Source: a virus. From it: a DNA stretch of 64,000 nt. The stretch covers positions 58,795 to 122,794 of the IMG/VR virus record IMGVR_UViG_3300042311_000577. One strand, 5' to 3'. Positions 3,254 through 33,244 of this stretch are shown one piece after another. Under the pieces are notes generated by a model. The model did no database searches. It had not been told where the DNA came from and was given only the letters and a program-made list of their open reading frames with translations. Within the stretch, counting starts at the first letter, position 1. Every line of letters begins with the position of its first letter. The position numbers and the translations under genes were made by a program.

Positions 3254-3308
3254 AATTTTTTAATTATAAAACTATTAAAATTTTTTAAGTTTACTAAACA
3301 TAGAAAGT

Positions 3309-5753
3309 TTACATGATAAAAGGATTCCATGAATCTACATAAACATAACCTCCATTTGCATAAAGCTGGCCTCCAAACTTACCTTTTAATTCTTTAAGTG
3401 CTAAGTAATTTGCCTTCTCATAAGTCATACCATTTCTCATATGTTCTCTAACTATATCTTCTTTGGTAGGACCAGTTGCTCCAGTCAATGGTTTTTCAAC
3501 TCCAGTATGATACATCATTCCATAATCATATTCTGTATTAAACTGTGGAGTAACTTGATTTCTATTATACACGTTAGCCATTTGATCATTAGCCTCCATT
3601 ACAGCTCTTGTTGTATTAAAGTTTCTTTTAGTTTTAAGAGCACTACTTAAATTTTGGTCTCTAGCTTGATTTGCTAATCCTTGATTCAATATGTTAGTTC
3701 TAGCTTCATTTACAGCCATATCCATTTGTCCCTTTCTTGCATTGACTGAATTTTGAGTATTTACATTTCTTGCTTGTACATCAGCTACTGCACCTACTCC
3801 AGCATTTAATGCTTTATCTAGTAAGTCACCCATTTGTTTTTGTTTATCAGCTGTAGAACCTGCTTGTGAATACATGATTGCATTTTTCATATTATTAGCT
3901 GCTGAATTTGCAGCATGTAATTTTGCATCAAATGATTCATAAGCACCAGATGTTTTTGCATCAGGAGGAAGAACAACATTTGTACGTGCTACACCTGTAT
4001 TAGCTAAAGCGTTAGTTAAAACATTAAGTTTTGCATTAACACTCCAACGTGGTTTATCAGCAACTTGTCCTTGACTTCCATCTTGACAAACACACTGCTC
4101 TTCATTTTCAATAGGAAATTCTTTTACTTCTCCTGTTACAGGATCAGTACATCTACAAATAAGAGATTCTGTTTCTCCACCACATGATGGATCATCAGTT
4201 ATACAGTTTCCATTTTCATCTTTTTTTGCAACTTTTGGTGTACCATCTTCATTGTTTATTGTATTTCCATTTTTATCTTTACAATAACATGGTTCATCAT
4301 TAGGTTCATTAACTATATGTTCAGCAATTTGTGATTTACCTTTTACACCTTCAATACAATCTTTATATATACCACCAGCAGCAGGATCACTAATTATTGT
4401 GTTTATTGCTTTTTGTTTTGCTTCTTCCCATTTTGGATTTGGATTACCGCTAGCATCAGTTGGTCTTTGACCATCTAAATGACCTGGGAAAACTCTTACT
4501 AACATATCATCAATATCTAATGATGCTTGTATTTTTTTACAAACACCATTTGCAATAGCTACAGGATCACCTCCTCCACCGCCACCACCATGCCAAGTAA
4601 CTGCTTGACCTTTAACAATTTTGTATTGACCTTTTGTTCCTATTGAAGATGTAGAAGGAATCCAATCTGAACCAGAAGAAAGTGAACTAACTTGTTTTGA
4701 ACCAATGTTATTTACAGTAACTTGACTATCTCCGGGACCACCAAACTTAGGCATACCACCGTAAGCCATTTGTTCAGGATGATAAGGAAAATCATATCCA
4801 CCCATTTGCATTCCATAAGCCGCATATGGTATTCCTCCATAAGCCATCATACCAGGTTGTTGCATCATTTCTGGAGGAGGTATACTACCTTGCATTTGAG
4901 CCATTGATTCTGGTGAAGCTACTGGAGCTCCACTAGGCATTTGTTGTGGTGCAGCCGGAGCTTGTTGTGCTCCTTGATTCATCATTGCTTGATCTGCTTC
5001 CATAGCTTGCATAGGATTAGTTTGTTGCATTTCTTCTGCTAACATTGGATTTTGTTCTTGCGGCATTTCAGGATTAACACCTTGATTCATTGATTGGGCT
5101 AATTGATCAGCTTGTTCTTTTAACTCAGGCATTAAATCTTGTTCAGAAATTCCATTAACTTCCATATAAGGTTTAGACATAGCAGGAATACCTTGAGGAA
5201 AACCTTTCATTGATTCTTGAACTAAAGCTAAAGCACCTAACTTCATGATAAAGTTTTTGATCATTATAGTAGCAGTATCTCTTTCTAGTTTACCACTATC
5301 AGGATCTAATAATATAGACTTATATTTATTTATGTTATAAGGCTTTGCAAGTTCTGCTGGAGTATAACCACCTTTCTTAGGTGTTTTATTAAACATAGCA
5401 AGAACATTTGCATCATTTATTTTTAATGAAGCTGTGTCACTAAAGATAAAAGTATCATCAGGAAGATTTAAAGGAACACCTCCTTCATGATGTCTTTTAC
5501 CAATAATCTTTAAATGATCAGGAATTGATTGACCACTTATAGGACCAAATGCAGTTTCCCCACCTTCAGCTTCTAGATTTGCTTTATCTCTTGGTACAGC
5601 ACTTAGTGTATCTTTAACTCCTTCATAAGATCTACCATCTAATTTTCTATAATCAGCTCCACCGAAGGCACCTGGTTTTAAAGACAATGAACCATCAACC
5701 TGCTTTCCGTAAGCAGCCTTATCTAAAGGTAATTTTGTTATTTGAACTCTCAT
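3309..5753 (-). CDS. Probable virion cargo/ejection protein, 814 aa
   Basis: Long ORF with EAEGGE and GKRHHEGG motifs near the N-terminus, a Gln/Met/Pro low-complexity linker and many xxxGG motifs; located after the tail genes. Confidence 0.65.
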   Translation of the reverse strand: MRVQITKLPLDKAAYGKQVDGSLSLKPGAFGGADYRKLDGRSYEGVKDTLSAVPRDKANLEAEGGETAFGPISGQSIPDHLKIIGKRHHEGGVPLNLPDDTFIFSDTASLKINDANVLAMFNKTPKKGGYTPAELAKPYNINKYKSILLDPDSGKLERDTATIMIKNFIMKLGALALVQESMKGFPQGIPAMSKPYMEVNGISEQDLMPELKEQADQLAQSMNQGVNPEMPQEQNPMLAEEMQQTNPMQAMEADQAMMNQGAQQAPAAPQQMPSGAPVASPESMAQMQGSIPPPEMMQQPGMMAYGGIPYAAYGMQMGGYDFPYHPEQMAYGGMPKFGGPGDSQVTVNNIGSKQVSSLSSGSDWIPSTSSIGTKGQYKIVKGQAVTWHGGGGGGGDPVAIANGVCKKIQASLDIDDMLVRVFPGHLDGQRPTDASGNPNPKWEEAKQKAINTIISDPAAGGIYKDCIEGVKGKSQIAEHIVNEPNDEPCYCKDKNGNTINNEDGTPKVAKKDENGNCITDDPSCGGETESLICRCTDPVTGEVKEFPIENEEQCVCQDGSQGQVADKPRWSVNAKLNVLTNALANTGVARTNVVLPPDAKTSGAYESFDAKLHAANSAANNMKNAIMYSQAGSTADKQKQMGDLLDKALNAGVGAVADVQARNVNTQNSVNARKGQMDMAVNEARTNILNQGLANQARDQNLSSALKTKRNFNTTRAVMEANDQMANVYNRNQVTPQFNTEYDYGMMYHTGVEKPLTGATGPTKEDIVREHMRNGMTYEKANYLALKELKGKFGGQLYANGGYVYVDSWNPFIM

Positions 5754-5757
5754 GTGT

Positions 5758-8700
5758 TTATATAAATTTTATTTGACCACCAGCAGCAAGTATTTTTCCT
5801 ATCTCTTCTTGAGTAAGATCATATACTCCACCTTTCCTATATTGAGATTGCCCACCTCTTCTAAAAAATGCTGACTCACCTACATTACCAATAAAAGCAG
5901 TTGAACCTTCACCAGCTCCTTTTGAACCTTCTTTACCTTGTTCTTCATACCCACCACCTACATCTGTTTGTGTAGGATTTACTCTATTATCAGAAGTAGT
6001 TAAATCACCCATCCAATTTTGAGCATATTGATTTTTTCTTCTATTTCCTCCACCAATTAAAAGTCCTGATCCTAATTGTTTAAGATTACCAATTGCTTTT
6101 GGTCTAAGTGTTCTTGCAGTTTCAATTTCATACTTTGTAGTAAAATCTTGTGGTGTTCCTTGAACTTGTTTAGTATAATTTTCATTATAACATATATCAC
6201 CCGGTCTTGCATTTAGCACTTGTTCTTCTGTACACGGACCAGCACCAATATTTGTAACACCACCTGCATTAGGATCAAAAGGTCCTGACCCACTAAATTG
6301 CCCACCTGGATCAAATGAAGGCATATAACCTCCATAAGCCATATAGGCTGGTACATAACCACCTTCTTTTTGTACAAGATTACTATAGCCTTTTTGTTTT
6401 GCCCAGTTATCAAATGACCCATATTGTTTTTTGTTAGGTTCATTTTCCCACATTTTATATACATTACCTGCAGCTACAAGTTCTCTATTTCCAAGATCCT
6501 TTGTATTTTGTACTCTACCTGCAATTTCTTGTACACCTGCACCACTCATACCAAAACCATTACTGTTTCTTTGTTGCTGTAATTGTTGTTGTCTTTGAGC
6601 TTCAGCCATTCTTTGTTGTTCTGCAATTTTAGCTTGTTGAATATCATAAGCTTTTTTGTCAGCTACTTGTTTATCTCTATAAGAACCTTCTGACATACCA
6701 TCCATAGTACCCATCAAATTCATATCATCATTGGTAGCTGCACCTTCCCAAGGATCAGAATATTCTTGAAAATTTCTTGCCATTTCTGGTTGCTGAGTAG
6801 GAATCTCTTGCATACCTCTTGCAGGTAAACTACCAGGATTTTCATACAAACCTTCTGTAAATCTTTTTAAGTCAGTTTGATTAGGATAAATACTATTATT
6901 ACCTGTAGCCTGATTGAATTCATTTCCAACATTTTGATTCATTGCAGCATCAGGTGATGCCCCTGGTCTAGGTGCAATTTGACCTTGCTCTATTAAGTTT
7001 GTATTTTCTTTTGCAATTGCTTGTGGAGATCTATACCCTGGCATACCAGGAATACCTGCTAATAAATTTTCAGCTTCAGCAAATGTCATTTTATTTTGTG
7101 ACGGATTTGCATTTGATAAATCAGCAGTATTAGAAAAAGATTGCTGATTCTGCCAAAACTGAGAAGGTTGTAAATTAGTTTCTGAATTAGATGTTCCAGT
7201 TGCTGGATTAGCATTAACAGCACCTTTATTTCCTGTTGTACCTTGTAAAGCATTATTACCAGCACCTACTGTTATTGGTCTTGTAGGAGCTGGAGTTTGA
7301 TCTTCAATTGCATTCATTGCATCAGTCTGATCTCTCCAACTCATGTTCTCCCATGTTTCTTGATCAAATCCGTATCTTTCTGCTTGTGTTTTTCTTGGTT
7401 GTTCTGGTGCTGTAGAACTAGTTGCACTTGCATCAGATGCGGTTGTTGCGGTATTAGTAGCTCCTTTATTTTCATCACCTGGTAATACCATTGGTGCATG
7501 CCAATTACTTGTATTAGTATTAGTATTTGCTGTATTTGTATTTGCAGTATTAGTAGTTGTTGTTGCATTAGCATTTGGTTGCGTTGTTACAGTTGCATTA
7601 GGATTGTTAGGATCAAACCAACTATTTTTAACTGTTAATGTTTTTTTACCAGACCACCATGGACCTTTTTCATATTTCCATTCACTAGGCATATAACCTG
7701 GTGCAGGACCAGACGCTGTTGAACCTTGTCTTGGTTGTGGTTGACCTGATTGTCCTGGGATATATCCTCCAGGAACTTTAACTATATTTCCTTTAGCATC
7801 TCTAGGAAAATCAATTTGTCTTGCCCATCTAAAATCTTTTTTTATTGGGTTAAACATATCTAATAACTGTTGTCCAACAGATGGAGCAGTTGGATATGCA
7901 TATGATCCTCCACCTTGTGTAGTATTTTGTGTTTGAGTAGTAGTTTTATTTTGGTTATTTATTTCATTTTGTTTTTTAAGCCAGTCAGCTTCCCAAGTTT
8001 TCTTTTCTGTTTCAAGTCTTTTTTTATACTCATCTTCTGTAAGATCTTTCCAAGTAGTTGCTCCAGGATTAGTATTTGCTGTATTTACTTGACTATCATT
8101 AGGACCAGCAAATCTATATAAACCACCATTCCTAAAATAAGGATCCATTACATTTTTAGAGTCATCAGCATATGCATTGTCATATGCAACAATTGGAGAT
8201 ATCGGCATTTCATTACCTCCATAGACAAACTTCTGAAGATTACCATAAGGATCCATCTGAGGATTAGCCACAGGTCCCCCAAATTCTTTACCTGAAATAA
8301 ATCTTTGTTTAGCTTTATTCCAACTATCTAATGAGTATCCTAGTTTTAAATATTCTTCTTCAATACCAGGAGCATCCATCATAGCTGGATTATTTTTTAT
8401 AAGTTCATATAATACTTCTTCATCCGGATCAGGAAATCTAGATTTAAACTCAGAATTATAAACATTAGGATCAGTATTATCAGGAGAAGCAGCATTAGGA
8501 TCTAAAGCATCAACTTGTGCATCTTGAGGTGTCCATAGACCTGTTAAATAATCTACTTGTTCTTCAGGAAATTCTCTAATTACTCCAGCATTTGGATCCG
8601 CAGTTGCATTAAATTCTCCAGGGTTAATTACAGAACCTTTCATCCATGGATACTGAGAAGTTTCAGCTTTTCTTCTTGCAGCTTCATCTGGTGAGATAGC

Positions 8701-10089
8701 TTCTACTTCATTACCTTGTGCATCATAAACCATTTCTGTTCCAGCAGGAGCAGGATTTAATTCCATATAACCAGGATATGATTTAGTACTATTAGCATTA
8801 TTATTAAGAGTAACATTATTATTTTTTGCAGGATCTGCTGCATTATTTATTACTCTAGATTTAGTTCTTATGATTTCACCAGGATAACTTCTTGATGTAC
8901 TCCAAGATGAACTATAACCACCCGGATAACTTCCCGGCATATAACCATAAGAAGGACTTCCAAACATACTCATAGGAACTCCTTTAGCAGTCCATTCTCT
9001 TTTTCCTGTCCACCATGGTCCTTTTTTATATGTTAAATCAATCAAAGGTCCTGTTTGACCTTGTGTTGTTTGACCTGTACCTTGACCAGATGCTTGAGGA
9101 TTTTGTATAATATTTGGACTAATAACTTGTAAATAGTTAGGCATTCCTGGGACACCGAAATAACCAGCAGCTACATCTCCAAACATATTTTGGAAATCTT
9201 TTTGAGCTCTTTTCATTTCTCTACCTCTTCTTGCTTCTGGTATATTTTCAAAACCAGCACCGTGTATTTGATTCATAGGTTGTTTAAATATATTTGATAC
9301 TGTATCAGAATAAGCTTTAAGATGATGTTCACCCGCTTCAGGGTCTCCCGTTTGTACTTGCATACCATCTTGACCCATAGGTATTCCAGATTGTTGCTTT
9401 AAATTATTCATTGTGGTAAATAATTTTTTAGCAATACCCTCATTTCCTAAATCTTTTACACCTCTTCTAAATGCATTAACAAATGCTTGTCTACCATCTA
9501 TTGTGCTATCTAGAGTAGAGGATTGATTTGATTGATCTTGTTCAAGGCCTTCACTAGCTTTTCTTAAACCTTTTACAATATTTTTTACAAATTTTCTTTT
9601 ATTCACAGTTCCTCCTTTTTTTTCTTTATCTAACTCTTCATCCTCTGCAGTTACTTCCTCTTCAGTATCTTCAGCTTCTGTATCTTCATCTTCTTCTTCA
9701 TAATCTGCATAAGGATCATTCTCACTTACCCAAGGTTCATTTATGTTATATAAAGGTTCTCTTTTTACAGGTTCTACTTCTTGATCTTCAGTTTCTTGAT
9801 TGATTATATTTTCACCAGTGTCAAGAGTTTGATCCATGATAAAACTTCTAACTTCTTCAATCTTATCTAAAGCTTCTAATGGATCTAAGTCATATTCATT
9901 TTGTAGAGTGTCAATAATATCTGAGTTGTCTTTATTAGCACCGAGCTCATTCATTATAGTTTCCTCAATGTCATACTCATTCATTTTCATCTGCATCCCA
10001 TACCGTGCTTTTGGTAAACCAGTAAACTTGTTTAGTTTGCTAATAAACTTACCAGTACTTCCACCAGCTTTGTAAATTCTAACTTTCAT
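5758..10089 (-). CDS. Large low-complexity probable virion cargo protein, 1443 aa
   Basis: Long ORF with acidic, Thr/Asn and Gln tracts, a duplicated KGPWW(T/S)GK motif and many xxxGG motifs. Confidence 0.65.
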   Translation of the reverse strand: MKVRIYKAGGSTGKFISKLNKFTGLPKARYGMQMKMNEYDIEETIMNELGANKDNSDIIDTLQNEYDLDPLEALDKIEEVRSFIMDQTLDTGENIINQETEDQEVEPVKREPLYNINEPWVSENDPYADYEEEDEDTEAEDTEEEVTAEDEELDKEKKGGTVNKRKFVKNIVKGLRKASEGLEQDQSNQSSTLDSTIDGRQAFVNAFRRGVKDLGNEGIAKKLFTTMNNLKQQSGIPMGQDGMQVQTGDPEAGEHHLKAYSDTVSNIFKQPMNQIHGAGFENIPEARRGREMKRAQKDFQNMFGDVAAGYFGVPGMPNYLQVISPNIIQNPQASGQGTGQTTQGQTGPLIDLTYKKGPWWTGKREWTAKGVPMSMFGSPSYGYMPGSYPGGYSSSWSTSRSYPGEIIRTKSRVINNAADPAKNNNVTLNNNANSTKSYPGYMELNPAPAGTEMVYDAQGNEVEAISPDEAARRKAETSQYPWMKGSVINPGEFNATADPNAGVIREFPEEQVDYLTGLWTPQDAQVDALDPNAASPDNTDPNVYNSEFKSRFPDPDEEVLYELIKNNPAMMDAPGIEEEYLKLGYSLDSWNKAKQRFISGKEFGGPVANPQMDPYGNLQKFVYGGNEMPISPIVAYDNAYADDSKNVMDPYFRNGGLYRFAGPNDSQVNTANTNPGATTWKDLTEDEYKKRLETEKKTWEADWLKKQNEINNQNKTTTQTQNTTQGGGSYAYPTAPSVGQQLLDMFNPIKKDFRWARQIDFPRDAKGNIVKVPGGYIPGQSGQPQPRQGSTASGPAPGYMPSEWKYEKGPWWSGKKTLTVKNSWFDPNNPNATVTTQPNANATTTTNTANTNTANTNTNTSNWHAPMVLPGDENKGATNTATTASDASATSSTAPEQPRKTQAERYGFDQETWENMSWRDQTDAMNAIEDQTPAPTRPITVGAGNNALQGTTGNKGAVNANPATGTSNSETNLQPSQFWQNQQSFSNTADLSNANPSQNKMTFAEAENLLAGIPGMPGYRSPQAIAKENTNLIEQGQIAPRPGASPDAAMNQNVGNEFNQATGNNSIYPNQTDLKRFTEGLYENPGSLPARGMQEIPTQQPEMARNFQEYSDPWEGAATNDDMNLMGTMDGMSEGSYRDKQVADKKAYDIQQAKIAEQQRMAEAQRQQQLQQQRNSNGFGMSGAGVQEIAGRVQNTKDLGNRELVAAGNVYKMWENEPNKKQYGSFDNWAKQKGYSNLVQKEGGYVPAYMAYGGYMPSFDPGGQFSGSGPFDPNAGGVTNIGAGPCTEEQVLNARPGDICYNENYTKQVQGTPQDFTTKYEIETARTLRPKAIGNLKQLGSGLLIGGGNRRKNQYAQNWMGDLTTSDNRVNPTQTDVGGGYEEQGKEGSKGAGEGSTAFIGNVGESAFFRRGGQSQYRKGGVYDLTQEEIGKILAAGGQIKFI

Positions 10090-10106
10090 AATAATGCATT
10101 ATATAC

Positions 10107-10118
10107 TAATATACTAAA
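10107..10118 (-). promoter_or_regulatory. Late promoter-like motif TTT(A/T)GTATATTA (representative copy)
   Basis: The same motif occurs upstream of minus-strand genes at 24092, 27984, 39581, 49866, 54316 and 58041, with a variant at 32695. Confidence 0.65.
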
Positions 10119-10147
10119 TTTTAATTTAATTGATAAACTTACTAAGT

Positions 10148-12694
10148 TTAATCTAATTCTTCTACTATGTAACCTTGATCTATATATTCTTTTATTTTAC
10201 TTTTAGGTATGTCAAGTTCTATATAGTTATTAGTTGATCCACCTTTCTTTTGTTGTGGTAAGCCATTAGAACCTTCAAATGGATTTGCTAACATAGTTGC
10301 AGTACCAATTATACCAGTTGTTGGAATTGCTATACTATATAATTTTTTTAAATAATCTTTTAATTCTTTTTGATTATATATTTGTCTAAGTTCAGCAATA
10401 TCTTTTGGTATTTTACCTGCTCTATTTAATTCAATAACTTGATTATATGGCATATCCACTAAATCATCAATAGATATACCAGCTTCTTTAGAATATAAAA
10501 TTGCACTTATCCCTCTTTGTCTTGCCTCATCTGGACTACTATAATAGCTTATCAAATCATCATAAGCTTTATTTCCAGATTCTTTACCCCACTTAGTCCA
10601 ATTTTTTAAAGTTTCCTCATCTAAACTTAATTTTGGTAAATTTTCTAAGAGCTTTCTATTTTTATCATCATATAAAGATGTATGCCCATATTCATGTGAA
10701 ACAACATATTTAGAATCCGGTCTACTCAATCCAGTACTTGAAAAATCTATACCTAATTTTGTACCAGAAGCATCTGCACCTGCAGAATACGCCATTGCAT
10801 CACTTTCAAGAGTACCGGAATTTTTAGATTTAACATATCTAGGTTTTGTTTTATTTATAGCATTTATTAAATTATTTTGATAATTATGTGCATCCATAAA
10901 AGATAGTCCAGGTATTCCATTTTGAAGTCTTCTGTTATACTCACCAGAACTATAAAAATCTAATAGTTGTTGTTTACCTGCTTCAATGTTTGCTAATTGT
11001 TCTTGTGTTGGATTATAGGCTGAATTATATGTATCTTCTAAAGCTTTTCCATACTTATCAGGTTTTGCCTCTATAAATAATTCCCAATCTTCTTTTGATC
11101 TACCTGTTTTATTTAATATATCTTCATCAGGTAATTTTAAAATTTGTTCAAAATTTAAACTGTAACCCTTTTTACCAACATCATCTACAGAAGGAATAGC
11201 ATTAGAAACTTCAACAGGTGCTTTTGGCTCTACTTGTACTAGTGATTCTTTATTATAACCTCTTTTACCAAAATCAAAATTACCTGTCTCAAGTCTTTTA
11301 AGTTCATTAAATTGAGCTTCAGTAACCATACCATCTTGTTTTTTACCTGTCTCAATTAAACTGTTATAAAACTTTCTATCACTAATAGACATTTTTTTAC
11401 CATCATAACTATCTAATAGTTGCTTATAGTAATTCATGTTTTTCTTAACCATATTACCACTACTACCAGTAGGCATACCTAACATGAGTGGTCCAGGAGG
11501 TCTATCAAAAAATTGCTTTAATCTATTAGTTATAGATGTATTAGGAGAACCTGGTAATTCAGTTGGTACTTCTTTATATCCTTTTAACCAATGTTGTTTT
11601 AATAATCTTCCTTCAGATACAGGTACTTCAGCCATGTCTGCTATCCATGGTGTATATTCACCAGATGCATTAGCTGGTGATACAAATGGCATACCTTCTT
11701 TATTTACACCTGATGTTTCAAACATAACAGTTGGTCTACCATGTGCACCAGAACCAGTTTGTTCTAACATTGATATATCTTTACCTTCAACAAAATAAGG
11801 TCTTGGATATGTTGCTTGGTCAGCACTTTTAATAACTCCTGTATTTAATGCATCTTCTAAACCTTTATTACCAATCTGTCTATAAAATTTGTTTGGATCT
11901 TCTTTAAATGCCCACGGATTTATTTTATAAGCATTTTTTATAGCTGCTCCTGCAAATGGTGCTGTTTGTAAAACATCCATTCCTATTTGTCCTGCACCAC
12001 TCCAAGATGGATCTTTAGCAAAATCATATACATCAGGAGCTAATCTTGCTGCACCTTCCATAGCTCCTATTGCCATTCCAACCGGAGTCATGTAAGCAGC
12101 AGCTTTAAATACTGGATTATTAACTACTGCAGCATTTCCTTCTATAGCAGCTTGATTGATTGCCTCTTGATTTATTCTATCAGCCTCTTCTTTGCTAGAT
12201 GCATATATAGGTTCACCTGTAATTACATTAGTACCTTTAGCTTTACCAAAAGTTGCTGGATCAAATCCTGCATCTATAATTGATTGTCTATATGTATCTT
12301 CAGACTCCCATTTATTTCTCAGTGCTTCCTGTTGTTTTTTTTCTTTTTCTCTTGATGCTTTAGTTTTATCATCTAGTTTGGTTACTGATTGTGGTTGAAT
12401 TTTATCTAGTCTAATTAAAGCTCCTGATTCTGGATCAAATCCCCATTTACCACTATATAATCTATCTTTTATTTGATCATTGTATTCTGGAGTTATTAAA
12501 TTACGTACTTCATTATTTGTAACATGCATGTCCCAAGCAGCTACACCATCAATATATTTTTTATCATTTTTTAATGTATATAACTTAGCACATTTAGTTC
12601 CGTTCCAATAAGTTCCAGTAGGACAACTTTTTTTATCACCCCCTTTTGCAAATTTATTTAATGATGGTATACTTGTTATTCTATACTTTTTCAT
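10148..12694 (-). CDS. Multidomain probable cargo protein with C-terminal zincin-like (HExxH) domain, 848 aa
   Basis: VSHEYGH followed by YYSSPDEARQR; begins ...FAKGG and ends ...QKKGG plus a YIVEELD module. Confidence 0.65.
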   Translation of the reverse strand: MKKYRITSIPSLNKFAKGGDKKSCPTGTYWNGTKCAKLYTLKNDKKYIDGVAAWDMHVTNNEVRNLITPEYNDQIKDRLYSGKWGFDPESGALIRLDKIQPQSVTKLDDKTKASREKEKKQQEALRNKWESEDTYRQSIIDAGFDPATFGKAKGTNVITGEPIYASSKEEADRINQEAINQAAIEGNAAVVNNPVFKAAAYMTPVGMAIGAMEGAARLAPDVYDFAKDPSWSGAGQIGMDVLQTAPFAGAAIKNAYKINPWAFKEDPNKFYRQIGNKGLEDALNTGVIKSADQATYPRPYFVEGKDISMLEQTGSGAHGRPTVMFETSGVNKEGMPFVSPANASGEYTPWIADMAEVPVSEGRLLKQHWLKGYKEVPTELPGSPNTSITNRLKQFFDRPPGPLMLGMPTGSSGNMVKKNMNYYKQLLDSYDGKKMSISDRKFYNSLIETGKKQDGMVTEAQFNELKRLETGNFDFGKRGYNKESLVQVEPKAPVEVSNAIPSVDDVGKKGYSLNFEQILKLPDEDILNKTGRSKEDWELFIEAKPDKYGKALEDTYNSAYNPTQEQLANIEAGKQQLLDFYSSGEYNRRLQNGIPGLSFMDAHNYQNNLINAINKTKPRYVKSKNSGTLESDAMAYSAGADASGTKLGIDFSSTGLSRPDSKYVVSHEYGHTSLYDDKNRKLLENLPKLSLDEETLKNWTKWGKESGNKAYDDLISYYSSPDEARQRGISAILYSKEAGISIDDLVDMPYNQVIELNRAGKIPKDIAELRQIYNQKELKDYLKKLYSIAIPTTGIIGTATMLANPFEGSNGLPQQKKGGSTNNYIELDIPKSKIKEYIDQGYIVEELD

Positions 12695-12696
12695 AA

Positions 12697-15600
12697 TTAA
12701 ATTTCTTCAAATGTATAACCTAAACTTTCTAAATAGTTTTTAGTAGCTTCATCTACTTGATCACCTAATTCATAATTTACTACACCGCCCTTTTTATAAT
12801 CAGATAATAGTTCATATGGATCTCTATCTGGATTTTCTTCCCATTCAGGTGTTTGATGATTATAAGCGGCATTATTTATATTTCCTATTTTAAACCATTC
12901 AGTATAATACGGTGGTTTTTTTAGTATAGCATTATTAAAGACATAAAAAACTTCTTTATCATATAAGTTTTGTGATACCTTTTTAAAATGATTTTGCATT
13001 TCAGCAGGACTCATTAATAAGTCTATACTATTTGCAGATCTTAAATATACTGTATTTACATCACCTAATTTTCTTTTGTTAAGCATATTTGCTATATCAT
13101 AATCAAATGACATTGGTATAGATTCTACATCTAATGGTAATGCTGATTTCCCATGTTTCTTGAATGTTTTAATTTCTGATGGTATATCTGTAGCAATTAC
13201 TTTAATATTTTTCTTTTTAATATTCGGATTACTTGCAAGTTCATATGTAGATACACCAGCTAAAGCAGGATTAGAGTTTCCTAAACCTGAACCAATATCA
13301 ATAATTACAGAGTTAGCTCCTGCATGATCTGCAAAGAATAATTCAGAGTCTCTGTTTCTTTTAACATCTGTTCTATTCATTATATCCTGACCTTTCTCTG
13401 GGAATAGTCTATATTTTGTATAATCATTGAGCTGTCTATTTAGAACATCTTTATCATTAACACCCTGCCCTTGAATATTTTTATAAGGATTTTCATTTAG
13501 TGATTCAGGATTAACTAAGTTATATACAGAAGGATTATCTGAACCTTTAGTAAAGTAATTTAATGATTGACCTAAATCAGTATCTTTCCAATCTTTTAAT
13601 CTTACATTTGATTTAGGTTCTACTATAGGTAGATTTAAATTTCCAGAACTGTTCATTCTATTTTGAGCTTGAACTTTTTCAATATTCTGACCTTGTGCAA
13701 ATGTACTTGCTGCATTATTTGATATAGGTTGAGAAGATGGTTTTCTAGTTATAGATGGTGCAGGTATATTAGACTGTTCATAAATGTTACCTTTCATCAT
13801 ATTAACTAGCATAGGATTAAGATCACTTTTATTTGCTTTAGGTGCATTACTAGTTTGTACTACTGGTGCAGCAACATTATATGCTTTTGGATCAAATGAC
13901 ATTAATTCTCCTGTTATAGGATTTTTTAAACCAAAAGTTGTTTCTTTTGGTTTTTGTTTTTTTGGTGTTTCTTTTTTAGGAGTTGTTTTTTGAGGCTTTG
14001 GTCTTTCATATGTTTTTGTATTCCAAATAGCTCCTGTCATTAAATTAGAAGATGAACTAGGTTTTTCAGGGCCGGCTGCATATTTTGCAGATAATCTTTT
14101 AGTAGGTTGACTAGGTTTGCTTTGACTTTTCTTATTTGCAAATAGTTCTGGAAATCTATAAATCAAACCTTCTCTGGTACCTATCCTTTCTCTAACTAGT
14201 TGGTCTAAACTGTAACCTTTATCAACTAGATCACCAACCATTTTATTATATCTCTTATCGTCATTCTCATCTTTAGCAACAGAAGTTTTTGGTTCACCAA
14301 ATTCACCAGCTAATAATCTTTTATGTAGTTCAATGTTTTTAGTATAACTACCATCTGTTAATCCTTTCTTTTTAGCTTGAGACCATGGAGTACCTGTAAT
14401 GTTTTCCCATTGTTCAGAAATTGTACCACCTCCTGCAAATTTATTCAATGTAGATATAGCACCACCTACTTTAGAATACTGTGGTATATTCTCATCACCT
14501 TCTTGTTGAGGTTTATTTTTAGAAATATTTTGTAGCATCCAAAGAATCTCTTCATCATTGAAATCTCTTCTTAAATCATTAATTGGTTGCATTGGTTGCC
14601 AATTTTCAGAATCTCTTTCTTTGTTTATATAATTTTGAAATATTTCAGGAGTTATCTGTTCAGTAAATGGATCATATACACCTTCTTTTTTTGCAGTCAT
14701 TCTAATTTCACCAAGTCTTGCTCTAGTTTCATGAGGTGATGATACATAATCATGAGCAAAAGATTTCCAATTTTCTGGTGCTTTTTGCTTTCTAATTTTT
14801 GCATTTTTAGTATCCCAATCTACCCAGTCTTTTAATTTTGTATTAAATTCAGGATCTTCAGGATTTTCACCCATTTCAATCATTTGATTTTTCCAATACT
14901 CTTCACCTTTTGGTAAATAGTTTCCTTTTTTTTGAGCTATTTTATAATCTTCATTATCTTTCCAATTAGAACCTCTATGTGTAGTAATATACATTGAATC
15001 AGAAGGTGGTATTACTCTATTATGCCATTCTGGAGAATCTTGCGGAAATCTTGGATCTTTATATAACATCCAATCTGGATAGTTTTGTATTGTATCATTA
15101 TCATTAACATACCAACTATTTTGTGTACCAGCAGCCATGTTAACAAGTTCAGGTGTTGCATTAGACAATTTTACACCCATATTATATGCAGGATGATCAG
15201 CTTTAAATAACTCTCTTGGTCTATCTGATGAATGGATTAATTCATGTGTATATAAAGTTGGACCATATTCATATCCTCCTGGAAATACTTCAACTTGTCC
15301 TGTATCACTAAAAGACCAGGCTGCTGGTTGTATTCCATCTGACTGTTCTTCTGATTCTTTTTCCATTATGTTTAATGGAGGTAAGTCAGCTAGATTTTTC
15401 TTTCTTAAACTTGTTAAGTAGTCTGCATTTTTTTGATTACCTTGAAAACTATTTAATACCATTTGATTATACATAGGTGAATCATGCCAGTCTTTAACAA
15501 ACTGCAAACCTTCTTCATAATATTTAGGTTCATTTACCTTAGCAGTTTCAATTGCTTGTAATCTTTCTTGTTCTCTATTATATGCATCTATATCAGTTAA

Positions 15601-16425
15601 TTCTTGATCTGTAAGATCTTTAGTTGTAATAGGTTCATAATAAAGTTCTCCTGTTTCAGTTTTTGGTAAATCAAAAGGTTCTTCTGAAGGATTTAAAATT
15701 TCAATAGATTCATTTTGAGTTACTGGTTTTTCATTTTTATTTCTTCTTAATTTTTTAGATTTTTTATCTTTTGAACCACCGTCTATAAATCTATTTAAAG
15801 AAGGTATAGAAGGATCATCTATCTCTTCAACTATATAACCACCTTCAACATATTTTCTTATTTGATCTTTAGTAAGTTCTGCTTCTATAAAACCTGGAGA
15901 AACATCTTTATAATGTTCTGCAAAATAAGCAGCATCTTCATCTGAATCAAATCTCATGGCTTCATTAGATTCTGGACCATAGTCACCTAACATTAACTGA
16001 CCATTTTCATCTTGAATTTGAGGAACAGCATAGTTATCTATACTTGCCATATAGTGTGTACCTGTATTTCCATTTTCAAATTGATATGGATTATCAGGTA
16101 GGTTAATCATTCTTTTTGCAGCAGGATTTCCAAACTCATTAGCATAAGCTAGTCTAGCTTTCATCATACCAGTCATACCATCCTTTTCACCACCATTATC
16201 AAAGTACATGGATGTTGGATCATATATTTTCTTCTTGTAATTCTTTTTTTTAAGCAAAGGATTTTTTGCAAACAATCTATTTGTAGCTTGAAGATTACTA
16301 GAAAACTTTTTACTACCTCCTTTTTTCATCTGAGGCTTATCTAAGTCTGAATCTTTTTTTTTAGCTTCTGGTTCCTTCTTGCCTAAATCATTAAGTGCTT
16401 GAAGAAAAAATTTTTTATTATACAT
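12697..16425 (-). CDS. Multidomain probable cargo protein with zincin-like and SAM-methyltransferase-like segments, 1242 aa
   Basis: THELIH...YVSSPHETRAR (zincin-like); IIDIGSGLG...VIATDI (Rossmann MTase motif I/II-like). Confidence 0.65.
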   Translation of the reverse strand: MYNKKFFLQALNDLGKKEPEAKKKDSDLDKPQMKKGGSKKFSSNLQATNRLFAKNPLLKKKNYKKKIYDPTSMYFDNGGEKDGMTGMMKARLAYANEFGNPAAKRMINLPDNPYQFENGNTGTHYMASIDNYAVPQIQDENGQLMLGDYGPESNEAMRFDSDEDAAYFAEHYKDVSPGFIEAELTKDQIRKYVEGGYIVEEIDDPSIPSLNRFIDGGSKDKKSKKLRRNKNEKPVTQNESIEILNPSEEPFDLPKTETGELYYEPITTKDLTDQELTDIDAYNREQERLQAIETAKVNEPKYYEEGLQFVKDWHDSPMYNQMVLNSFQGNQKNADYLTSLRKKNLADLPPLNIMEKESEEQSDGIQPAAWSFSDTGQVEVFPGGYEYGPTLYTHELIHSSDRPRELFKADHPAYNMGVKLSNATPELVNMAAGTQNSWYVNDNDTIQNYPDWMLYKDPRFPQDSPEWHNRVIPPSDSMYITTHRGSNWKDNEDYKIAQKKGNYLPKGEEYWKNQMIEMGENPEDPEFNTKLKDWVDWDTKNAKIRKQKAPENWKSFAHDYVSSPHETRARLGEIRMTAKKEGVYDPFTEQITPEIFQNYINKERDSENWQPMQPINDLRRDFNDEEILWMLQNISKNKPQQEGDENIPQYSKVGGAISTLNKFAGGGTISEQWENITGTPWSQAKKKGLTDGSYTKNIELHKRLLAGEFGEPKTSVAKDENDDKRYNKMVGDLVDKGYSLDQLVRERIGTREGLIYRFPELFANKKSQSKPSQPTKRLSAKYAAGPEKPSSSSNLMTGAIWNTKTYERPKPQKTTPKKETPKKQKPKETTFGLKNPITGELMSFDPKAYNVAAPVVQTSNAPKANKSDLNPMLVNMMKGNIYEQSNIPAPSITRKPSSQPISNNAASTFAQGQNIEKVQAQNRMNSSGNLNLPIVEPKSNVRLKDWKDTDLGQSLNYFTKGSDNPSVYNLVNPESLNENPYKNIQGQGVNDKDVLNRQLNDYTKYRLFPEKGQDIMNRTDVKRNRDSELFFADHAGANSVIIDIGSGLGNSNPALAGVSTYELASNPNIKKKNIKVIATDIPSEIKTFKKHGKSALPLDVESIPMSFDYDIANMLNKRKLGDVNTVYLRSANSIDLLMSPAEMQNHFKKVSQNLYDKEVFYVFNNAILKKPPYYTEWFKIGNINNAAYNHQTPEWEENPDRDPYELLSDYKKGGVVNYELGDQVDEATKNYLESLGYTFEEI

Positions 16426-32725: not shown

Positions 32726-33244
32726 TTATTTTAAGAAAAGTAATTTATATTTAGTAGAATTAATTGAATCTTTTACTAAATCTAAGTTATTTACTATTTC
32801 TGAATAAGGTAACATACCTTGTAGTTTATTTACCATAGCATAAATATCTCTTAGGTAAGCCACACCATCTGCTACAGTATCTAAGGTTCTTGGAGAGACT
32901 TCAGAATACTTTAATATTTTTTCTGCAGCTCCTTGATATCCTTCAATAAGACTATCAGCAAAATCTGGTAAAGCATCATATAATTTATTAAGAGCTTTGT
33001 GAGCTGCATAAGAACCATCACCTGTTACTTTAAGATGTAGCTTATGAAAACTTGTTCTTGCATTCATAAGTTCTGAAACACATGCAGATACCATAGTATC
33101 TAATGAACTACCACCAACTCCTGTATCTGGAGTAGGTTGTGGTTTAGCTGGTTCTTCTTTTGGTTGAGTTACTATAACCTGTGGTCTGCTTATTGTTCTA
33201 GCAGGCTCAGGGTTTCTTTTTAAAAGTCTTGATTTTGTTTCCAT
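32726..33244 (-). CDS. Ferritin/Dps-like protein (DUF5856-like), 172 aa
   Basis: HKLHL...SYAAHKALNKLYD...DSLIEGYQG...YKLLFL four-helix-bundle signature. Confidence 0.75.
   Translation of the reverse strand: METKSRLLKRNPEPARTISRPQVIVTQPKEEPAKPQPTPDTGVGGSSLDTMVSACVSELMNARTSFHKLHLKVTGDGSYAAHKALNKLYDALPDFADSLIEGYQGAAEKILKYSEVSPRTLDTVADGVAYLRDIYAMVNKLQGMLPYSEIVNNLDLVKDSINSTKYKLLFLK

Follow-up and report, generated by a model that had tools for sequence, protein, structure and literature searches.

A short acidic module and Gly-Gly linkers mark cassette borders and gene ends in the cargo proteins of crAss-like phages

The window analyzed here, a stretch of 64,000 nucleotides, spans bases 58795-122794 of a virus record (IMGVR_UViG_3300042311_000577) that is complete at 122,794 bases and has direct terminal repeats; it forms the right part of a crAss-like phage genome. 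Three genes that follow its muzzle protein gene encode proteins of 1242, 848 and 1443 residues, which carry four copies of an acidic, helix-centered module of approximately 25 residues; no further copy above 12 bits is found in the whole 122,794-base genome. Together with linkers that contain a glycine pair (GG), the module marks the borders of exchangeable cassettes, both here and in a large clade of crAss-like phages that are uncultured. These cassettes have been exchanged between phages, proteins and positions, fission and fusion turn gene ends into internal junctions and back, and recombination happens inside the module itself. An earlier, sequence-only reading of the window had proposed that the cargo genes are built from interchangeable cassettes with standard ends, which might also chain the proteins head-to-tail, an interpretation that our analysis partly supports. 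The peptides it quoted are all in place: a related module closes each of the three proteins, always just after GG, and another copy lies inside the 1242-residue protein, with a linker following (Table 1).

The similarity of these copies is real and lies far beyond chance. A leave-clade-out profile was built from 31 module sequences, none of them window-like; all came from loci sharing no more than 67% muzzle-protein identity with the window. All 174 open reading frames (ORFs) of at least 60 residues in the window were searched with it. The four copies scored 13.4-21.1 bits and the next match 9.1 bits; across 100 residue shuffles the best score was 9.0 bits, and the maxima averaged 2.2. The full profile found 191 domains at or above 20 bits in the six-frame ORFs of the window and its related loci (787,427 residues), against a maximum of 4.5 bits on one shuffled copy of the same set. 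A wider search, in which a 38-position profile of 44 module ends was compared with 1.84 billion cluster representatives, returned 1006 proteins at E ≤0.001 and 297 at E ≤1e-10, bearing out the proposal that a profile would delineate a significant family. Weak look-alikes of this short module do turn up in unrelated proteins, such as the N-terminus of PhyH and calmodulin helices (E 0.039 and above). That short acidic peptides resemble one another here by chance is nevertheless refuted by the leave-clade-out scores and by the large-database search, and we consider it vanishingly improbable. DNA identity among the copies in the window is low, so their conservation is at the protein level; a recent DNA-level repeat was rejected on the same grounds.

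The module comprises an extended segment, a single helix (L-T-x-E-E-I-x-x-Y) and a second extended segment (G-Y-I-V-E-E-L), with the overall consensus (hydrophobic)-[Q/K]-x-G-G, 0-12 residues, h-[E/D]-x-[E/D]-L-T-x-E-E-I-x-x-Y-x-x-G-G-Y-I-V-E-E-L. After an internal copy comes either S-[I/V]-P-x-L-[T/N]-x-x-x-x-G-G or a shorter x-Q-x-G-G linker. The mean net charge over 24 residues is -5.1 (82 unique modules). AlphaFold2 (AF2) modeling of module and linker from 34 aligned internal copies (33 of the 37 unique internal instances plus the window's own) gave a mean predicted local distance difference test (pLDDT) score of 74.6 and placed a helix on TKDQIRKYV, with a pLDDT of 93 over the 10-residue helix block.

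Three types of module can be told apart by sequence and context. Type A (...GYIVEEL) occurs both internally and at gene ends, where it is followed by a conserved spacer of 57-64 nucleotides and then by a gene starting MKKRVRIYK. Type B (Y-x-L-G-D-E-V-D-E-A-T...L-G-Y-T-F-E-K-I) is found only at gene ends, which abut (-1 to +2 nucleotides) a gene starting MAKYRIT-SIP. Type C (Y-M-T-D-E-E-I...N-G-G-x-L-E-F-I) closes the 1443-like protein, 9-10 nucleotides before a gene starting MLRKVRIK, MYFKVKITK or MRVQITK. The internal copy in the window is of type A and resembles the end of the 848-residue protein, not the B end of the 1242-residue protein in which it lies. The sequence-only reading had seen in this internal segment the boundary between the 1242- and 848-residue genes without its stop codon. 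The linker does match, but the internal copy is of the A type instead of B and MKKYRIT is missing, so only the linker half of the gene boundary is reproduced.

The muzzle protein C-terminus was searched against viral contigs, which yielded 419 relatives, from which 80 loci were kept. Architectures were tabulated for 57 loci; 22 of 79 (L017-L095), in which the muzzle end was not recognized by the search pattern, were left out of these tables and kept in the six-frame module search. Across the 57 loci, 49 of the 66 unique complete proteins encoded between the muzzle gene and a conserved MATYLQGV gene end in the module, and nearly every first cargo protein of the relatives has an internal copy. 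The top 150 proteins of the wider search carry two (99 proteins), three (47) or four copies (4); a copy lies at most 3 residues from the C-terminus in 132 of them, and 74 begin like the window's first cargo protein. Ten top proteins that were looked up derive from metagenome collections, their annotation absent or reading 'hypothetical protein'. Neither Pfam nor PHROG matched the module on four window proteins, no small-domain family emerged among 34 scanned relatives, and a profile search of the PDB gave a best match of E 0.039 to an unrelated protein. On isolated phages the module profile scored at most 1.9 bits (Fpv1 gp31-33 and phi4:1 gp37-41) and at most 0.9 bits (crAss001 gp45-47). No description of the module was found in the literature searched, and the rule by which module and linker build these proteins is apparently undescribed so far.

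What is encoded between the muzzle gene and the 1443-like gene varies greatly among these phages: the window encodes 1242 + 848 residues, and relatives encode 722 + 1553, 542 + 2542, 651 + 2293, 2383 alone, 363, 776, 1269 and others. Homologous cassettes lie in different proteins and in different order. The stretch 268-691 of the 1242-residue protein corresponds to 140-529 in the first protein of locus L085 (45% identity), residues 660-761 match both L085 1349-1450 and the second protein of L039, in each case just past an internal A module and linker, and residues 14-141 of the 848-residue protein match L085 residues 46-170. The interchangeable cassettes of the sequence-only reading are therefore borne out by the domain order of the relatives, whose architectures are not fixed. 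The ends of matches of at least 80 residues cluster at the module and at GG: 102 of 509 internal match ends lie at most 25 residues from a module (47.5 expected), and 376 of 1392 match ends lie at most 5 residues from GG (131.5 expected), although these counts are not independent, since related sequences repeat the same ends, and the p-values overstate their independence. Individual events can also be discerned. Locus L019, 97-98% identical to the window, is missing a cassette of ~290 nucleotides; on one side identity resumes in the middle of an A module, and on the other it stops at G-G-E-K. The single 2383-residue protein of L020 is colinear with the 542- and 2542-residue pair of L021, in which a B module, a stop codon and MAKYKIT sit exactly after the A module and linker, where L020 has the linker only. 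This pair upholds the idea that gene boundaries and internal junctions can be fused or split; the internal module itself is the rule in the first cargo protein and not the relic of one fusion.

If module and GG linkers were passive punctuation, they would act as flexible beads-on-a-string spacers that let cassettes thread the tail singly, with a sequence kept mainly as recombination homology. A breakpoint inside the module and the enrichment of breakpoints at modules and at GG are as this would predict, and the loosely linked, beads-on-a-string domains of the N4 virion RNA polymerase have been proposed to let a very large ejected protein pass a narrow tail channel (PMC13434306). A spacer, however, needs no ~25 residues kept at the protein level while the DNA diverges, no three types tied to gene-end context, and no near-obligatory place at the C-terminus (132 of 150), and we regard this explanation as very unlikely.

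We tentatively favor a different role, in which the module would be a common handling tag, by which the proteins are loaded into, or held within, the virion. It would dock each cassette-bearing polypeptide to one shared partner, either a part of the virion or another cargo protein, and any swapped-in cassette would thereby still be loaded and held; the cargo proteins are presumably ejected. We favor a handling tag because the module is the sole feature common to otherwise unrelated cassettes, and because almost every separately encoded protein of the block ends in it. Several observations weigh against such a role. The module is absent from the 814-residue protein and from the downstream proteins of 1148, 2147, 4030 and 2026 residues, all presumably packaged, and it cannot therefore be a universal loading tag; it is likewise absent from the isolated relatives Fpv1, phi4:1 and crAss001 (gp45-47), and 17 of the 66 unique complete proteins have no terminal copy. 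A simple C-terminal tag would not need internal copies. In the AF2 model of module and linker the flanks are extended and of low confidence, and in a second model a natural tandem end (A module, linker, B module) reached a pLDDT of 52, uninformative on module-module pairing. The dependence among breakpoint counts noted above counts on the same side.

The tie between module type and the gene that follows raises the possibility of docking within the cargo itself. Here the acidic C-terminal module would pair with the basic N-terminal strand of the next protein (MAKYRIT, MKKRVRIYK or MLRKVRIK), and a cargo chain in gene order would set the order of loading or ejection. In counts made with rough regular expressions, all 11 of the 11 unique pairs with a B module have MAKYRIT next, 21 of 25 with A have MKKRVRIYK, and 10 of 12 with C have MLRKVRIK. 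The charges are opposite, -5.1 for the modules against +3.6 for the 12-residue starts of the following genes. Moreover, the B signature (27 and 13 terminal instances against 0 internal) and the MAKYRIT-SIP start (13 and 1 N-terminal against 0 internal) occur at split junctions only, never inside a protein, and in the split form represented by L021 a B module, a stop codon and MAKYKIT stand at the very place where the fused relative has a linker alone. Conserved gene order and common descent nevertheless explain the pairing equally well, no basic strand follows the internal A modules, and A-rich, lysine-rich starts are common in phage genes. Structural support was not obtained: a complex prediction for the C-terminal 40 residues of the 848-residue protein and the N-terminal 45 residues of the 1443-residue protein (23-row alignments) scored 0.28 against a mark of 0.32, which argues neither for nor against binding. 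We judge such docking, and with it the head-to-tail chaining raised by the sequence-only reading, to be unlikely. A stricter version, which we hold to be decidedly improbable, would make the B module and the MAKYRIT strand a matched snap fastener that, once a cargo polyprotein gene has been split, re-joins the halves non-covalently, with A/MKKRVRIYK and C/MLRKVRIK acting alike, so that all early cargo proteins form one head-to-tail chain that leaves the virion in gene order. Were it true, new enzyme cassettes could be swapped without disturbing the chain.

The GG motifs invite yet another explanation, namely that the cargo is a polyprotein. The hydrophobic-[Q/K]-x-G-G linkers would then be protease sites, cleavage at which would release individual cassettes from the cargo, with the module and N-peptides acting as pro-pieces or spacers to guide loading until they are removed. 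GG is nearly invariant beside the modules (G51; G11) but stands at a variable distance from them, so it looks like a separate feature, not part of the fold. The top 150 proteins hold 732 further GG sites in a defined context, P-x-[F/Y/M]-[Q/K]-x-G-G, and the sole two GG dipeptides of the 848-residue protein (residues 18 and 818) bracket its cassette. Both the 1242- and 848-residue proteins contain an HExxH motif, embedded metallopeptidases have been proposed to self-process polyvalent proteins (Iyer et al. 2017, PMC5512222), and under such processing frequent fusion and fission would be neutral. Against this, no protease family was recognized in the minority of the 122.8-kb genome's proteins that was scanned, and the HExxH cassettes match no known peptidase family. 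GG enrichment is modest in the 1242-residue protein (9 observed, 4.3 expected) and nil in the 848-residue protein, and plain flexible hinges, too, typically have GG-rich linkers. We regard processing as rather improbable.

For the question of how crassviruses choose, load and order their injected proteins, a tag common to hundreds of otherwise unrelated cassettes gives a concrete handle on the partner that would load or order them. The module also supplies a clear rule for the swapping of effectors by phages. In environmental crAss-like phages it further delimits a very large set of candidate injected effectors, among them SET methyltransferases, ADP-ribosyltransferases, wall hydrolases and HExxH domains of no known family. 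An injected SET enzyme of a phage seems worth a look.

The cassettes themselves are varied. The 34 relatives scanned, picked from among the higher-ranked and longer of the top 150 representatives and thus not a random sample, contain SET (6), Phage_lysozyme (3), ART-PolyVal (2), SLT (2), VanY (1) and Amidase_2 (1) domains, together with LysM and others. Several unrelated effector or lytic domains thus share one polypeptide beside virion genes, and the cargo of the relatives is therefore polyvalent in the sense of Iyer et al. (PMC5512222). A SET domain opens the first cargo protein, in place of the MYNKK start, in L030, L047, L048, L050 and L051 and in P0006, P0011, P0013 and others. Very small exchangeable units also exist, exemplified by a zinc-ribbon-like mini-cassette, LLTKKVTCKKCGWEWDAADGG..TTCHKCGGQG, which lies between GG linkers in L085:11224-17589 (residues ~480-525), L091, P0109 and P0111.

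The window's own cargo proteins gave no Pfam or PHROG family match for their cassettes, five cassette pieces searched against Pfam at E up to 1 returned only noise, tblastn of the 1242- and 848-residue proteins against a phage record collection found no match, and nor did a PDB sequence search with the C-terminal domain of the 848-residue protein. For the latter domain LPD23 scored 0.85, which serves as a lead only. HExxH motifs are found at residue 394 of the 1242-residue protein (HELIH, 15232-15246) and at residue 667 of the 848-residue protein (HEYGH, 10682-10696). Both regions may be zincin-like domains that have escaped recognition. A pairwise comparison of the two cassettes gave weak colinear similarity (E 0.008 and 0.61), and their putative relationship as paralogues is a lead. 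Both motifs are followed ~150-200 residues later by a similar Y-x-S-S-P-x-E-x-R-x-R stretch. The HEYGH cassette recurs in 17 proteins of 478-1467 residues, one of which also has a SET domain. In a more distant phage, L002, a 538-residue protein (9299-10915) has a HEYGH cassette that is 60% identical and no module; its termini, MKWLNKYQDGG at the start and NGGWLSKYN at the end, show a linker-like motif in mirrored form. The last cassette of the 1242-residue protein (residues 900-1212; 12790-13728) contains IIDIGSGLG at residue 1041 and, by language-model features, scored 0.90-0.92 with clusters of class I S-adenosylmethionine methyltransferases, while Pfam gave nothing; a methyltransferase-like cassette is predicted here as a lead. 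The second linker of this protein precedes a GT.S..W..(I/Y)TGTPWS.AK cassette, which in L039 and L085 comes after an A module and linker.

The cargo block begins at the muzzle gene, whose 1803-residue product matches Pfam crAss_MUZ (E 2.2e-34) and is only 24-28% identical to its counterparts in the closest isolates, phages of Flavobacterium and Cellulophaga; from the hosts of these isolates, a host among the Bacteroidota is likely. Upstream lie Ring 1 and Ring 2 (tail ring proteins) and Crass_capsid, and the portal and large terminase are present too. On the minus strand the order is muzzle, 1242, 848, 1443 and 814 residues, followed by the four giant proteins of 1148, 2147, 4030 and 2026 residues. 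Within a virion block of the crass type, the window genes thus come immediately after the muzzle gene, where crassvirus cargo is encoded.

Table 1. Positions, in the 64,000-nucleotide window, of the genes, modules, linkers and spacers under discussion
Feature	Position	Strand	Remarks
Muzzle protein gene, 1803 residues	16425-21836	-	Pfam crAss_MUZ
First cargo gene, 1242 residues	12697-16425	-	N-domain, A module, linker, HELIH cassette, linker, methyltransferase-like cassette, B module
Internal A-type module FIEAELTKDQIRKYVEGGYIVEEI	15820-15891	-	1242-residue gene; 28.0 bits full profile, 21.1 bits leave-clade-out
Linker SIPSLNRFIDGG after internal module	15775-15810	-	1242-residue gene; same linker type after internal modules of relatives
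Second linker AISTLNKFAGGG	14425-14460	-	1242-residue gene; precedes GT.S..W..(I/Y)TGTPWS.AK cassette
Terminal GG and B-type module GGVVNYELGDQVDEATKNYLESLGYTFEEI	12700-12789	-	End of 1242-residue protein; 26.0 bits full profile, 18.5 bits leave-clade-out
Second cargo gene, 848 residues	10148-12694	-	Start 2 nucleotides past stop of 1242-residue gene
N-peptide and linker MKKYRITSIPSLNKFAKGG	12638-12694	-	Start of 848-residue protein
Terminal GG and A-type module GGSTNNYIELDIPKSKIKEYIDQGYIVEELD	10151-10243	-	End of 848-residue protein; 28.8 bits full profile, 13.4 bits leave-clade-out
Third cargo gene, 1443 residues	5758-10089	-	N-terminal 490 residues ~50% identical in relatives
Basic N-peptide and linker MKVRIYKAGGSTGKFISKLNKFTGL	10015-10089	-	Start of 1443-residue protein
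Terminal GG and C-type module GGVYDLTQEEIGKILAAGGQIKFI	5761-5832	-	End of 1443-residue protein; 15.0 bits full profile, 19.9 bits leave-clade-out
Fourth cargo-block gene, 814 residues	3309-5753	-	Starts MRVQITK, ends NGGYVYVDSWNPFIM; no module
Intergenic element	10090-10147 and 3254-3308	-	Same spacers in L017-L095

Relatives of the 814-residue protein share its start and its hydrophobic end. In the window (3312-3356) and in L040-L091, these 814-like proteins never have the module and are closed instead by a conserved hydrophobic tail, GG-[Y/F]-V-...-[F/Y]-P-F-[I/M]-x. The 814-residue protein also contains low-complexity stretches rich in Y/M-G-G (18 GG observed, 8.1 expected).

A conserved intergenic element of 57-65 nucleotides, common to dozens of loci, follows both A-type gene ends and the 814-like gene. 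It comprises an inverted repeat over the stop codon (TAAACTT-nnn-AAGTTTA) and then an A/T-rich motif, AAAATTTAGTATATT...TATATA; in the window the repeat lies at 3295-3310 and 10134-10149, with 4 matches against 0.5 expected. A stable RNA hairpin is unsupported (z-scores of 0.66 and 0.07 against shuffles). As the RNA is no stabler than shuffles, the element may be a promoter, or else a site bound by a protein, that divides the cargo block into separate transcription units. Elsewhere in the virion block, a 172-residue protein (32726-33244, minus strand) matches PHROG 858, 'starvation-inducible transcriptional regulator' (E 1.4e-21), and is possibly a DNA-binding virion protein or packaging helper.

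Short peptides shared by otherwise unrelated packaged proteins have precedents. The internal proteins of phage T4 share a capsid targeting sequence, a short N-terminal peptide that steers them to the head and is removed there by the head protease, which cuts after a glutamate. The module resembles it as a short peptide common to otherwise unrelated packaged proteins, and differs in its position, which is C-terminal or internal; the shared basic N-peptides of the window resemble T4 targeting in idea only. Encapsulin cargo-loading peptides are likewise short, lie at the C-terminus after a flexible glycine-rich linker on unrelated enzymes, and dock inside an HK97-fold shell. The module differs in that it also occurs internally and has three types linked to gene order. 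With regard to the linkers, adenovirus and African swine fever virus cut their structural polyproteins after GG in a short hydrophobic-x-G-G context. The GG context in the window is similar, but cutting is hypothetical here, and no such protease was found among the window-genome proteins scanned, which are only part of the proteome.

The N4 virion RNA polymerase is one conserved enzyme, whereas the window has exchangeable cassettes with a repeated tag (PMC13434306). In Bacteroides phage crAss001 (Bayfield et al. 2023, PMC10172136), the muzzle gene is followed by genes for cargo proteins, which the head and tail store and which are ejected. Of one cargo protein, only fragments were observed in the virion; short helical pieces of gp45 (residues 214-245 and a piece of 14 residues) are held in the interior of the tail barrel and close to the muzzle. 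The likeness to these cargo proteins, C1 and C2 (gp45 and gp46), lies in gene position directly after the muzzle gene, and the short helical docking pieces of gp45 make a short helix-containing docking piece a known theme. The window's cargo proteins had no BLASTP match to gp45 or gp46 at E <0.01, and an equation of the module with the barrel-bound 214-245 piece is unsupported by sequence, given profile scores of at most 0.9 bits on gp45-47. Polyvalent proteins, known from phages and conjugative elements, are large and multidomain, are encoded beside virion genes, are thought to be packaged and injected, and have heavily shuffled domains; their ART-PolyVal, SET, lysozyme and SLT domains recur in the window's relatives (Iyer et al. 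2017, PMC5512222). The terms 'linker' and 'crAss' are absent from the main text of that paper, and in contrast to the polyvalent proteins it describes, the phages studied here place one conserved mini-module with GG linkers at cassette junctions and the same module at protein ends (PMC5512222). Beyond the known polyvalent cargo proteins and short loading tags, what these phages add is a repeated junction tag, its three context-bound types, and the pair of elements that appears where a junction is split.

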